DNA of 64,000 nt from a virus (taxonomy: Duplodnaviria; Heunggongvirae; Uroviricota; Caudoviricetes): positions 44,652 through 108,651 of IMG/VR virus record IMGVR_UViG_3300042691_019384; one strand, written 5' to 3'. Under the pieces are notes generated by a model that saw only the letters and a program-made list of their open reading frames with translations, did no database searches and was not told where the DNA came from. The number at the start of each line of letters is the position of its first letter. Position 1 is the stretch's first letter. Below are positions 45,189 through 48,405 of the stretch, piece after piece. A program made the translations under genes and the position numbers.

Positions 45189-46754
45189 ATGAAAAACTAT
45201 ATTAAATTCAAATTAAGAAACTTATTAAACGAAACGGAATTTAATTACCATAAAGGTGATATAGAAAATGTAGAAAATATAAGACCATATGGTTCAGATA
45301 ATTTATTTCGTATGCAAGGTCGTGGAACTGGGCATTTTGGTTCTGGTCTTTATTTTTCTACTTATAGTTGTGAAAATTTTGATGATTCCGATAACTCAAA
45401 AAAAGAATTAACTAAAATAAAAGATAATATTTATCGTGTTGATTTTGATATTTATAAAAATTTATTTAGGGTTAAATCACCAGACCATGCTGAAATGTTA
45501 TTTAAAACATTAAAACTAATAAATGAAAGTTTTTATTTAGTTGTTAGAGTTTATGATAGCAAATTTGAAATGGATAACAAATTCAAAATTATTTATTTAA
45601 AAATAATAAATAATGCACAATACCTAGGTTTAAATATTCCAAAATATCGTGAATATATAAATATGGTTAAAGAAGCCGCAAATGACATGAAGAACAAAAC
45701 CAATTTAGCATCCATGTCAACAAGAATAATGGAGTACAATGGTTTTAATGGTGTTAATGTTAGCGGTATAGATGGGTATGATAATACATTACACGGGTCT
45801 GTTATATATGATTTATCTAAACTATCGTCTAATCCAGTAGAAGTTAAAAACCCAGAACTATTTTGTAAAATAAAACGTGATGTGATAACTAATTTCCCAA
45901 ATATGCGTTCAGATGCTTTAGCTGGTGATAAATTAAGTATTGATTTTTTTAATAAATTAAAAAATAATGAAAAAATAATTTATATAAAAAATTTTGAATA
46001 TTATTTTGAACCTTATCAATTAGATGAGTTAGATGAAAACTTAAAAAAAGTTTATTATAATTCATTACCAATTAAATTTAAGAATGGTTTATTAGAAAAA
46101 TTACCACATTATAAAATGGTTAAAAAAATGATTGATGATGGTTATATTAAATTAATTTATGATGAAAACATTAAAGTAAATGATGTAACTATATTAGAAG
46201 ATATTTTAGAAGATTTTTGGAAGTATGATGAAAAACATCAAGAATTGATTTTAAAAAACATAAATAGACCATTAAATGATGAAGAAGAACGTTTATTAAA
46301 TAACGTGAAAGAAGATGATGAATATAAACAATTTTTTACCGAAAACGAAAATAAATTAAATACTTCATCTGAAATAAGAATTAAATATGATATTAACTTA
46401 CCAAAGGACATAATAGATATTAAAGATATTTTTGTTAAGAATGGTTATGATTTATATCTTGTTGGTGGTTCAGTAAGGGATGTTTTACTAAATAAAGAAC
46501 CAAAAGATTATGATTTAGCAACAAATGCTAAACCAGATGATATTGAAAACATATTACAAGAAAACGGTTATAAAACAATAGCAACAGGAAAAGCATTTGG
46601 TGTCATTAATGTTATAACAGATAGTGATGAATATGAAATAGCCACATTCAGAATAGACCAATATAAAGGTTATGATTTAGAAGGGTTTAAAGATTATTTA
46701 AAACGTTTAAATAATGGTAGTTACGAAAAATTTTTAACTAAATTAATGAAATAG
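45189..46754 (+). CDS. cca: fusion ORF: ART-fold-like N-terminal domain + 5' part (head domain) of a split CCA-adding enzyme
   Basis: C-terminal 110 aa DIKDIFVKNGYDLYLVGGSVRDVLL...YDLATNAKPDDI...GKAFGVINV...YEIATFRIDQY matches the Pol-beta-type head of class II tRNA nucleotidyltransferases, then reads 25 codons to a stop; N-terminal RGTGHFGSGLYFSTYS motif shared with other paralogs in the window. Confidence 0.6.
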   Translation: MKNYIKFKLRNLLNETEFNYHKGDIENVENIRPYGSDNLFRMQGRGTGHFGSGLYFSTYSCENFDDSDNSKKELTKIKDNIYRVDFDIYKNLFRVKSPDHAEMLFKTLKLINESFYLVVRVYDSKFEMDNKFKIIYLKIINNAQYLGLNIPKYREYINMVKEAANDMKNKTNLASMSTRIMEYNGFNGVNVSGIDGYDNTLHGSVIYDLSKLSSNPVEVKNPELFCKIKRDVITNFPNMRSDALAGDKLSIDFFNKLKNNEKIIYIKNFEYYFEPYQLDELDENLKKVYYNSLPIKFKNGLLEKLPHYKMVKKMIDDGYIKLIYDENIKVNDVTILEDILEDFWKYDEKHQELILKNINRPLNDEEERLLNNVKEDDEYKQFFTENENKLNTSSEIRIKYDINLPKDIIDIKDIFVKNGYDLYLVGGSVRDVLLNKEPKDYDLATNAKPDDIENILQENGYKTIATGKAFGVINVITDSDEYEIATFRIDQYKGYDLEGFKDYLKRLNNGSYEKFLTKLMK

Positions 46755-46798
46755 CGACTTTTAGATTAATCCATGATATTTATAATAAAAAGAATGTC

Positions 46799-47506
46799 AT
46801 GGAATCAAAATATTATGTCTATGTTTACCTAGACCCAAGAAAAAAAGGTGAATTTACATATGGTGATTATAAATTTGAATATGAACCATTTTATGTTGGA
46901 AAGGGATGTTACAAAAGATGCTTAGAACACTTAAACCCTAATAGGATGAAGTGTGATAATAACACATATAAAATTAGAAAAATTAATAAAATAATAAATA
47001 TTGGTTTAAAACCAATAATTTTAAAAATTAGTGAAAATATATTTGAAGTTGATGCTTTCGAGTTAGAAAAAAAATTAATATTAGTTATTGGTAGGAATGA
47101 TTTAAAAAATGGTCCATTAACCAACCTTACCAATGGAGGCGATGGTGTTTCTGGTCACATAAGGTCGTTAGAGTATAGGAATAAAATCAGTCAAAACAAT
47201 AAAAATAGGGAGGTTAGTAATATAACAAGAGAAAAAATAAGTCAATCATTAATTGGTAAACCTGGTAGAAATACTGGTAATAAACACAGCGAAGAGACTA
47301 AAAAACAAATATCAGAAACCAAAAAAGGTACTTTGTCTTGGAACGCAACACCAGTATTACAATTATCTAAAGATAGTGAATTAATTAAAGAATGGGTTAG
47401 TGCAACAGCAGCAGCAAAAGAATTAGGGTTGAGTCAAGGCAATATTTGGTCGGTAATAAATGGTAATAGAAATAAGTGTGGTGGTTATAAATGGAAATTA
47501 AAATAA
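46799..47506 (+). CDS. GIY-YIG homing endonuclease (I-TevI-like, with C-terminal NUMOD-type DNA-binding region)
   Basis: YVYVYLDPRKKGEFTYGDYKFEYEPFYVGKGCYKRCLEH (GIY...YIG), catalytic region ...GPLTNLTNGG; C-terminal GGYKWK; inserted between the two halves of the cca gene. Confidence 0.8.
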   Translation: MESKYYVYVYLDPRKKGEFTYGDYKFEYEPFYVGKGCYKRCLEHLNPNRMKCDNNTYKIRKINKIINIGLKPIILKISENIFEVDAFELEKKLILVIGRNDLKNGPLTNLTNGGDGVSGHIRSLEYRNKISQNNKNREVSNITREKISQSLIGKPGRNTGNKHSEETKKQISETKKGTLSWNATPVLQLSKDSELIKEWVSATAAAKELGLSQGNIWSVINGNRNKCGGYKWKLK

Positions 47507-48405
47507 TTAAAATGGAAAATTGGGAACAAATAGCTAAAGAATTCTTTAAAAAAGAATTTGAAGATTATGAAAAAACTTTAGCTGATAAAAGAAGACCAGA
47601 TTCAGTCGAATTCACAGATATATATCAAGATGTGCTAAGAAGAGATATAACAATAAATGCTTTATTTTACGATATTAAAAATAAAGAAATTGTTGACCTT
47701 GTTGGTGGTATTGAAGATATAAAAAATGGTGTGATTAGAACCGTTGGTAAACCAGAAGATAGATTCAATGAAGATAGACTTAGGATTTTAAGAGTTCTAA
47801 GATTCTCAGCCAGATTAGATAGTGATATAGACCAACAAACAGATGAAGCATTACAAAAAGATGCTAGTTTAGAAGGTATATCTGCTGAGAGAGTAAAAGA
47901 TGAATTTATTAAAGGAATTAAATCAGCTAAAAATGTTTCTTTCTTTCTATCTTTAATAGATAGATATAATTTATTTGATTGGATTTTTCCTAAACTTAAT
48001 ATTAATAAGAATTTCAAAAACTTAACAGATGATTATATCATAACAATATCAACTTTATTAAAATTAAATAACCCTAAAAACATTGGTAACAAATTAAATG
48101 AATTAAGATACACTATTGATGAGATAAGAAACATTCAATTTTTACTTAGTTTTTTAAATATAAGTATTGATACAGCCGTAGCATTAAAAAAGATGCAAAA
48201 AAATATAACATTGAATGATGAACAAATAAAAAAATTCGGTCAAATAAATAATTTAGATAAAAAGTTAGTTGATGCTTTTATAGATTTTGAATTGTCTGTT
48301 AATTCACAAGAAGTAATGGATAAATTTAATCTTAAACCTAGTCAAGAACTTGGTAATAAAATAACATCGTTAGAAACAGATAACTTTAAAAAAACAATTA
48401 AATAA
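47491..48405 (+). CDS. cca: 3' part of split CCA-adding enzyme (neck and body)
   Basis: ADKRRPDSVEFTDIYQDVLRRDITINALFYD...VDLVGGIEDIKNGVIRTVG...RFNEDRLRILRVLRFSARL continues the class II CCA enzyme conserved block (RRPDxVEF...RRDFTINA...ED.LR.LRA.RF). Confidence 0.65.
   Translation: MEIKIIKMENWEQIAKEFFKKEFEDYEKTLADKRRPDSVEFTDIYQDVLRRDITINALFYDIKNKEIVDLVGGIEDIKNGVIRTVGKPEDRFNEDRLRILRVLRFSARLDSDIDQQTDEALQKDASLEGISAERVKDEFIKGIKSAKNVSFFLSLIDRYNLFDWIFPKLNINKNFKNLTDDYIITISTLLKLNNPKNIGNKLNELRYTIDEIRNIQFLLSFLNISIDTAVALKKMQKNITLNDEQIKKFGQINNLDKKLVDAFIDFELSVNSQEVMDKFNLKPSQELGNKITSLETDNFKKTIK

Follow-up and report, generated by a model that had tools for sequence, protein, structure and literature searches.

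A predicted GIY-YIG homing endonuclease gene lies within the flexible-loop coding region of a CCA-adding enzyme gene in a large uncultivated phage

When analyzing a 64,000-nucleotide (nt) stretch of Caudoviricetes DNA (positions 44,652 to 108,651 of IMG/VR record IMGVR_UViG_3300042691_019384, here called the window), we examined a locus where the gene of a CCA-adding enzyme is divided in two by a predicted GIY-YIG homing endonuclease gene. The ORF listing gives three open reading frames (ORFs) at 45189-46754 (521 amino acids [aa]), 46799-47506 (235 aa), and 47491-48405 (304 aa). The original prediction, made from the letters of this DNA, had read the locus in the same way, and its ORF coordinates are correct except for the start of the C-terminal half at 47491; the conserved start is the ATG at 47512 (MENWEQ...). 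The sequence that it described as about 160 nt of non-ORF flanks turned out to be conserved coding extensions, and the true noncoding DNA around the endonuclease gene amounts to 44 nt upstream and 5 nt downstream. The features of the locus are as follows, with related loci and proteins designated by L and P numbers.

45189..46373, + strand: N-terminal domain of 395 aa, fused in frame to the N half of the enzyme (continuous ORF; same fusion in P0001, P0002, and P0003)
46374..46664, + strand: N half of the catalytic head, from motif A (GGSVRD...DYDLAT) to the BxA motif (FRID) plus QY (Pfam, NF009814, and PDB matches)
46635..46652, + strand: exon 18-mer GAAATAGCCACATTCAGA, coding for EIATFR, directly 5' of the divergence point at 46654 (alignment with L011 and L013)
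46665..46754, + strand: 29-aa tail KGYDLEGFKDYLKRLNNGSYEKFLTKLMK and its stop codon TAG (46752-46754), not present in L011, L013, and L004
46748..46765, + strand: out-of-frame near copy of the exon 18-mer, GAAATAGCGACTTTTAGA (15 of 18 positions), which includes the N-half stop and lies at the 5' end of the intervening element
46752..47511, + strand: intervening element of 760 nt, consisting of stop codon, exon-like motif, hairpin, endonuclease gene, and 5-nt spacer (comparison with L142, L010, and L140)
46764..46806, + strand: predicted RNA hairpin in which a UGAUAUU box is paired with the endonuclease start (AUG 46799-46801) (minimum free energy, -13.9 kcal/mol; z, -4.3)
46799..47506, + strand: predicted free-standing GIY-YIG homing endonuclease gene, 235 aa (Pfam, phrog_314, TIGR01453, and orthologues at the same position)
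47512..47580, + strand: head of about 23 aa, MENWEQIAKEFFKKEFEDYEKTL, opening the C half (L011 identity resumes at 47581; missing from short-loop relatives)
47581..48405, + strand: remainder of the enzyme, with the loop's C-terminal portion (ADKRRPDSVEF), motif B (DVLRRD), motifs C to E (including EDRLR), neck, body, and tail (Pfam, NF009814, and structure matches)

The two outer ORFs together cover what is a single protein in contiguous relatives. Residues 422-493 of the first ORF match positions 1-72 of the 126-position Pfam head domain PolyA_pol (PF01743), and the third ORF matches positions 69-126 of it together with PolyA_pol_RNAbd (PF12627). The NCBIfam Bacillus-type CCA model NF009814 is likewise shared out, with the N piece on 17-93 and the C piece on 87-374, and searches of the Protein Data Bank (PDB) matched CCA-adding enzymes and a poly(A) polymerase in two stretches that leave the junction uncovered. 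None of the catalytic motifs (GGxVRD, DxD, RRD, and EDxxR) is missing from the split halves: motif A (LVGGSVRD...DYDLAT) is in the N half, and the C half carries motif B (DxxRRD) as DVLRRDITINAL, motif D as NEDRLRILR, and the RNA-binding neck PF12627. The bacterial poly(A) polymerase signature, [LIV][LIV]G[RK][RK]Fx[LIV]h[HQL][LIV] as quoted in PMC2910056, was absent when checked by eye; the corresponding stretch reads ATGKAFGVINVI. Motifs and domains thus point to a class II tRNA nucleotidyltransferase of the CCA-adding type, broken where its relatives are contiguous, as had been proposed. With 218 bits against NF009814, the intact relative P0001 falls below the equivalog cutoff of 290 and is a member of the superfamily rather than a curated equivalog. 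An AlphaFold2 (AF2) model of N-piece residues 396-521 joined to the C piece had a mean predicted local distance difference test score (pLDDT) of 89 and matched the Planococcus, Bacillus, and human CCA-adding enzymes (including PDB entries 6Q52 and 1MIV) with template modeling (TM) scores of 0.62 to 0.74 and a probability of 1.0. The Planococcus and Bacillus enzymes were the best fold matches.

The break falls at a sensitive place of the enzyme. The segment between the BxA (basic/acidic) motif and motif B (DxxRRD) is defined as the flexible loop (Hoffmeier et al. 2010, PMC2910056). It is required for switching the pocket from CTP to ATP and hence for adding the terminal A, and foreign loops or a glycine spacer placed in it abolish A addition (PMC2910056). 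In the window enzyme, FR-I-D is the BxA motif and DVLRRD is motif B; the tail, the break, and the head are therefore located toward the N terminus of the flexible loop, whose RRPD...F portion stays attached to motif B. A short flexible loop was found only in the intact relatives P0001, L004, L001, and L002; that of the window enzyme is interrupted and holds the tail, the chain break, and the head.

Comparison with near-identical genomes gives the boundaries of the inserted DNA. L011, a 5-kb Logan contig, is 99.5% identical to window positions 43472-46665 and 99.3% identical to 47581-49403, and it encodes a single uninterrupted protein of 768 aa, P0001, reading ...EYEIATFR-SEKYTD-ADKRRPDSVEF.... 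The two sequences diverge from 46654 and come together again at 47581, with about 927 nt in the window in place of about 17 nt in L011. The gene is intact in L013 (P0003) as well. Clustering at 90% identity places three 521-aa (split) members together with five 768-aa (intact) members in the cluster of the window N piece, so split and intact alleles coexist among near-identical phages. IMG/VR contains a second such pair, the intact L004 (ATFRTDVGSGRRPD) and the split L003, which are nearly identical in their C-terminal part.

Exact window proteins were found again on 9 to 17 metagenomic contigs of up to 293.5 kb, and the window is therefore a piece of a large uncultivated phage. Given these contigs and the near-identical intact allele in L011, the split locus is real and is no assembly artefact. 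Megablast of window positions 40000-52000 against deposited phage genomes returned no near match. The G+C content of the window is 23 to 31%, and nearly all genes are on the + strand. Since that strand has no terminator-like site between the two enzyme pieces, cotranscription of both pieces is plausible.

The middle ORF has three Pfam matches, LEM-3_GIY-YIG (PF22945) at residues 5-104, NUMOD3 (PF07460) at 136-172, and I-HmuI_NUMOD-like (PF22083) at 197-231, and it also matches the homing endonuclease family phrog_314. It scores 50.9 bits against the TIGR01453 "group I intron endonuclease" model (cutoff, 56.05) and resembles the DNA-binding region of I-HmuI (PDB 1u3e) with an E value of 0.0036. 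These matches identify it, by sequence, as a likely GIY-YIG homing endonuclease with an I-TevI-like domain plan, that is, an N-terminal GIY-YIG domain and C-terminal NUMOD modules, which bears out the earlier view that a complete endonuclease of this type separates the halves.

The short DNA upstream of this gene has two conserved features. In all eight endonuclease-bearing loci that we compared, a UGAUAUU box is predicted to pair with the endonuclease start codon (z, -1.6 to -5.5). The consensus stem is a 9-bp inner stem backed by changes on one side of it only, and RNAalifold captured no covariation in the outer stem. In L135, L136, and L141 the stem is lengthened by an exon-like motif, CUUUUCGU, which pairs with endonuclease codons 3 to 5. 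Sequestration of the start site keeps down the endonucleases of T4 and of "fractured genes" (PMC2988022; PMC2677866), and by analogy with the T4 endonuclease genes the hairpin would limit endonuclease translation here. The second feature is the near copy of the exon 18-mer at 46748-46765, which is the only other match at up to three mismatches in the 64 kb, with 0.04 expected by chance. The motif AARTARCNACNTTY is found at the N-half stop in all ten split loci with intervening DNA and was absent from the continuous or short-loop alleles L137, L142, and L004. The copy may be a remnant, may belong to the 5' hairpin of the endonuclease gene, or may act as an operator that mimics the homing site in the manner of I-TevI; the I-TevI operator resembles its homing site with 15/20 identity (PMC2988022). 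We also considered whether the second EIATFR copy is translated by frameshifting or bypass and rejected this, as its frame relative to the endonuclease gene varies between loci, three of the loci have Ser or Cys in place of its "Arg" codon, and in several the copy runs directly into stops. Read-through of the N-half stop, for which relatives have a tRNA(CUA), was rejected as well: 4 of 10 loci use TAA, and it would add only a few residues.

The tail and the head together form an insertion module of about 55 aa, 29 aa at the end of the N piece and about 23 aa at the start of the C piece, which has 297 aa from ATG 47512. The tail is kept in more than 100 N-half clusters. N halves (about 128 to 150 aa) end in FRxDxY..DLEGFKxYLKxLNNGxYExF...LxK, and C halves (about 295 to 304 aa) begin with MExWEQIAxExFxxEFxxFKxxLxGGRRP. 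Among approximately 42 aligned C halves, W4 of the head is invariant and A8, E15, F16, F19, and L23 are nearly so; most of the conserved positions hold hydrophobic or aromatic residues (F, Y, and L in the tail; W, A, F, F, and L in the head). Nonsynonymous (pN) and synonymous (pS) divergence was compared pairwise between six split loci. The tail has a pN of 0.12 to 0.19, a pS of 0.35 to 0.92, and a pN/pS of about 0.2, omitting the pairs with L005, whose tail sits one codon out of register. The pN/pS is 0.22 in the catalytic core and 0.58 in the head, where pS exceeds pN in 14 of the 15 locus pairs.

Continuous forms of the module were found in two relatives. In P0230 (L137), segments homologous to tail and head form an insertion of about 80 aa within one ORF of 464 aa. 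In L142 the end of the tail-coding sequence directly adjoins the head ATG (...AAATTTAATGAAA|ATGGAAAATTGG...) with no element between them, and a single extra T in a T run (2880-2950) yields two overlapping out-of-frame ORFs of 150 aa and 304 aa. The L142 gene is continuous but for this T, which could be a genuine frameshift or stem from faulty assembly. Because divergence is dominated by synonymous changes and these continuous coding forms exist, both extensions appear to be translated and to be under purifying selection at the protein level. In the AF2 model the junction region (model residues ~95-160) has four predicted helices, with tail and head contributing two each; these may pack into a small hydrophobic unit holding the two chains together. 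A metagenome scan with the head pattern as degenerate DNA (TGGGARCARATHGCNAARGA) returned 119 mostly chance loci and no new cassette.

We investigated the distribution of the split among related phages. Database searches yielded more than 100 protein clusters of N halves and about 45 of C halves, and eleven distinct split loci were compared, ten of which have DNA between the halves. An orthologous GIY-YIG gene (46 to 71% identity) is present in eight of these ten: the window, L005/L006, L133, L135, L136, L138, L139, and L141 (L003 is the same contig as the C half of L135, cut off upstream). L010 has no endonuclease gene and just 145 nt between the halves. At L140, a minus-strand ORF of 340 aa without a Pfam match (3439-4461) takes the place of the GIY-YIG gene. 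The eleventh locus is L142, where tail and head abut. Five of the loci have an extra ORF of 65 to 94 aa between the endonuclease gene and the C half (L005/L006 5781-6026, L136 3017-3292, L138 4130-4327, L139 4120-4371, and L141 4203-4487), which does not occur in the window; the L005 version has a CELATFGS stretch reminiscent of the exon EIATFR. Genes for tRNAs with the anticodon CUA (amber-suppressor type, called tRNA-Pyl by ARAGORN) adjoin the CCA enzyme genes of three related phages (L010 5295-5370, L135 908-979, and L138 1377-1448), with none in the window, which hints at TAG recoding in this phage group.

A sister phage shows a different interruption of the same gene. L012 (1713-4913 of a contig from Logan SRR12983620) is about 86% identical to the window and uninterrupted at the window break site. 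Its gene is split further downstream, between head and neck domains after ...RILRFFRFFCRFN, by a 289-aa Vsr/DUF559-like ORF, and there are almost no extensions at this second site. Since a GIY-YIG gene occupies the window site and a Vsr-like gene the other, two endonuclease families appear to have invaded the same gene independently. Immediately behind ATFR, L012 switches to a divergent mosaic tract that shares 57% identity with the window, compared with 82 to 89% in the flanks, and the loop region thus seems to have the mosaic pattern expected from repeated break repair.

We consider it probable that a free-standing GIY-YIG endonuclease gene has been placed within a ~55-aa insertion module in the flexible-loop coding region and that, because of this position, the CCA-adding enzyme is made as two polypeptides of 521 and 297 aa. 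By analogy with known homing endonucleases, the enzyme encoded by the element would cut alleles that lack it, and double-strand break repair would copy the element into them. In the window lineage, the repair tract would have run from the EIATFR codons to the GCT GAT AAA codons, bringing in tail, element, and head together and replacing about 17 nt of a short-loop allele. The hairpin would hold down translation of the endonuclease, and the two pieces would reassemble noncovalently into an active nucleotidyltransferase, with the tail and head helices serving as the assembly module.

Several observations weigh against this account. Reassembly and activity are proposed from purifying selection and persistence alone, and replacement of the loop kills A addition in model enzymes (PMC2910056), so that a 55-aa insertion with a chain break could impair full CCA synthesis. 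The junction helices have a pLDDT of just 56 to 70, in a model whose alignment had no paired tail and head rows. Constraint is weaker in the head, with its pN/pS of 0.58, and its first 10 or so codons are nearly invariant in DNA, for which co-conversion or a DNA target is possible instead of protein function. A 21-mer at the head start, TGGGAACAAATAGCTAAAGAA (window 47512-47545), is identical in the window, L003, L005, L006, and L010 despite diverged synonymous sites nearby, and not identical in L133 and L136; this is compatible with co-conversion beside the endonuclease gene or with a DNA-level target. The direction of change is taken from endonuclease biology; a gain of the cassette in the window lineage and its loss from L011 are both possible.

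An enzyme in two chains might also be real without any role for the extensions in assembly. The module would then be a tolerated loop insertion older than the endonuclease, and the halves would meet through the native interface of the head domain. The continuous forms of the module (P0230/L137 and, but for one extra T, L142), the near lack of extensions at the second split of L012, and the low junction pLDDT all favor this, and other phage enzymes split by endonucleases reassemble with no reported extensions (PMC2988022). However, among the loci compared every allele split at this site has the module and short-loop alleles are never split here, and the conserved hydrophobic pattern suggests a folded unit across the break; we regard a passive insertion as improbable, if worth keeping in mind. 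We give still less credit to the view that the split gene is inactive, its ORFs decaying while the phage relies on the CCA-adding enzyme of the host. The break does lie in a loop whose alteration abolishes A addition in model enzymes (PMC2910056), intact alleles occur in the same population, and L142 has a 1-nt frameshift. Such decay is hard to reconcile with halves that are full-length and conserved across more than 100 clusters diverged to about 55 to 70% identity, with the pN/pS of 0.22 in the core between split loci, with the presence of all the catalytic motifs, and with a split that outlasts the loss of the endonuclease in L010 and L140.

The two explanations in which the halves are rejoined, as RNA or as protein, are less probable than either of these. 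A group I intron with an endonuclease ORF, in which tail and head are merely open intron RNA and splicing restores a contiguous mRNA, would account for the I-TevI-like family of the endonuclease, which is often intron encoded (TIGR01453, 50.9 bits; JGI name, "group I intron endonuclease"), for the local hairpin, and for an L010 insert that at about 320 nt relative to short-loop alleles is of plausible size for an ORF-less intron. The Rfam model Intron_gpI (RF00028), a check suggested with the original prediction, had no match in the window (E values up to 10), L003 to L006 (up to 5), or L010 (up to 10, with permissive filters), although it may miss divergent introns, which is a further reservation about our account. 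Folding of the supposed L010 intron is no better than that of shuffled sequences (z, -1.6), the tail diverges mainly at synonymous sites (pN/pS, ~0.2), and the positions of the stop codon and the Met start are conserved. The homologous segments are read through as protein in P0230, and in L142 the flanks are only about 165 nt of tail and head codons apart, too short for a group I core. An intron is thus very unlikely, and the preference for a free-standing gene and two polypeptides that the original prediction had voiced is supported by the missing Rfam match, the protein-level selection on tail and head, and the continuous forms in relatives. Least probable of all is a "fractured gene" (Dassa et al. 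2009), in which tail and head would be a split intein joining the halves by protein trans-splicing. The layout is the same: an N part with an extension, a short gap (44 nt here; 27 to 51 nt of noncoding DNA in fractured genes [PMC2677866]), a GIY-YIG or Vsr-like endonuclease, and a C part with an extension. However, the extensions total about 52 aa, far short of a HINT fold, and have no Hint or intein Pfam match. In the alignments the tail lacks an opening Cys or Ser, and the head lacks a terminal His-Asn followed by Cys, Ser, or Thr. The structure prediction is all helical and not beta rich.

The free-standing reading has close precedents among the genes in pieces of T4-like phages, which include mobE in nrdA of Aeromonas phage Aeh1, mobA between T4 genes 39 and 60, a seg gene in gene 43 of phage 25, and the gene 43 of phage 44RR, split without an endonuclease (PMC2988022). 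Phage genes split by endonucleases can stay functional, and hairpins sequestering the ribosome-binding site are known (PMC2988022). As in those cases, the window has a complete free-standing endonuclease ORF inside a conserved enzyme gene, between co-oriented halves that form two ORFs in the original order; close relatives have the intact allele, both halves appear to be under selection, the endonuclease has its own predicted regulatory hairpin over the initiation region, and one relative, L010, is split without an endonuclease, comparable to 44RR. The target is different, a CCA-adding enzyme broken in its flexible loop, and so are the conserved, predictedly helical extensions on both pieces, which would move with the endonuclease into short-loop alleles. 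With fractured genes (PMC2677866), the locus shares the short noncoding gap, the 5' hairpin, a stop codon provided by the element's 5' end, the endonuclease families (GIY-YIG here and Vsr-like in L012), and an occurrence mainly in environmental phages. It differs from them in its extensions, which are about 29 and 23 aa long, helical by prediction, and devoid of intein motifs, so that any rejoining must be noncovalent.

The T4 td group I intron with I-TevI is similar in the endonuclease family and domain plan (GIY-YIG and NUMOD-type modules), in the hairpin that sequesters the start codon, and in the exon-resembling sequence upstream of the endonuclease gene (15/18 here and 15/20 for the I-TevI operator). 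In contrast to the td intron, the window has no detectable ribozyme core, its flanks are apparently translated, and the host gene is left in two pieces. Compared with class II CCA-adding enzymes (PMC2910056), motifs A to E are present with the loop between BxA and DxxRRD, but this loop has a 55-aa insertion and a chain break, and the window lineage has the 395-aa N-terminal domain in addition. The pairs of CC-adding and A-adding enzymes are another matter, as that known "split CCA activity" is due to two full-length paralogues and not to one enzyme in two chains. No account of a CCA-adding enzyme in split form turned up in the literature searched. New relative to that literature are the CCA-adding target, the flexible-loop site, the conserved non-intein extensions accompanying the endonuclease, and the breadth of the split family.

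A bolder proposal, which we put forward tentatively and think is more probably wrong than right, is that the extensions are a portable, non-intein "protein zipper" traveling with the endonuclease and that the two-chain enzyme with its 55-aa loop insert has an altered or regulated terminal-A addition, for example, CC versus CCA addition depending on assembly. A addition, which depends on this loop, may itself be changed in a two-chain enzyme. If true, the zipper would make it possible for an endonuclease to interrupt the most sensitive catalytic loop of an enzyme and yet leave the enzyme functional. Conserved noncovalent extensions accompanying the endonuclease would be a third solution to gene fragmentation beside the intron and the split intein, the two known means by which a homing endonuclease can reside in a gene of an essential type. 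What makes the case worth pursuing is that a chain break and a 55-aa insertion exactly at the flexible loop are kept in more than 100 phage lineages and that intact, continuous-insert, and split alleles are all at hand for direct comparison. The family seems to display the stages of a life cycle, from intact target to invaded gene, lost or replaced endonuclease, re-fused halves, and a second independent invasion, and it lends itself well to studies of endonuclease dynamics in large uncultivated phages.

The enzyme of the window lineage has, in addition, the 395-aa N-terminal domain fused to it, whose family is found in phage tRNA arrays. The fusion is common to the uninterrupted P0001 (768 aa) and P0003 and to P0002, which is split at a different site. 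The original prediction had described it as a 400-aa N-terminal fusion, which the continuous ORF and these three relatives confirm. Its description as unprecedented was too strong, as the domain belongs to a large and widespread stand-alone family of about 385 to 425 aa, encoded on phage contigs as long as 710 kb; among the matches listed, fusion to a CCA enzyme is confined to this small lineage. The label "ART-like" found no support: profile and fold searches with the domain returned no family or fold match and no ADP-ribosyltransferase. A back-translated peptide search for the domain in IMG/VR also returned nothing. Residues R45, TGHFGSG (47-53), Y82-R83, and HGSVIY (202-207) are invariant in the family, and its strictly conserved blocks are R45, TGHFGSG, YFSTY, YR, EYNGFNGVN, and HGSVIYD. 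The conserved N-terminal 100 residues were poorly modelled, and an ADP-ribosyltransferase fold with an R-S-E or H-Y-E catalytic signature is thus conceivable, if unsupported. The closest stand-alone homologue, P0004 (L143 / L144 4001-5158), is embedded in a 22-tRNA array and has an R2K ATP-grasp protein as its neighbor, with an RNA ligase nearby. This context fits the fusion to a CCA-adding enzyme and suggests a role of the domain family in tRNA metabolism or repair. An ORF of 167 aa downstream of the enzyme (49460-49963; IKKMLTNYLNES...GSLGNGLY, with GxGLY) has an N terminus with a superficial likeness to the start of the domain; it was considered as a paralogue and rejected, the profile comparison being not significant (E value, 0.089).

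Directly upstream of the fused gene, window positions 44267-45154 encode a sigma-70-like factor with regions 2 and 4. It has the same position in L011, L012, and L013 and is not upstream of the CCA gene in L010, L135, and L136. Two tRNA-like Rfam matches that ARAGORN did not call, at 43185-43286 (32.5 bits) and 43418-43495 (28.4 bits; gathering score, 29), are located downstream of a tRNA-Leu(UAA) gene (42831-42917); the former measures 102 nt and possibly contains an insertion. The other large ORFs of the window are mostly without a Pfam match. Two that have one encode an 813-aa protein with an ArdC N-terminal (antirestriction) domain (25457-27898) and a 476-aa protein with DUF2828 and DUF7788 (33325-34755).

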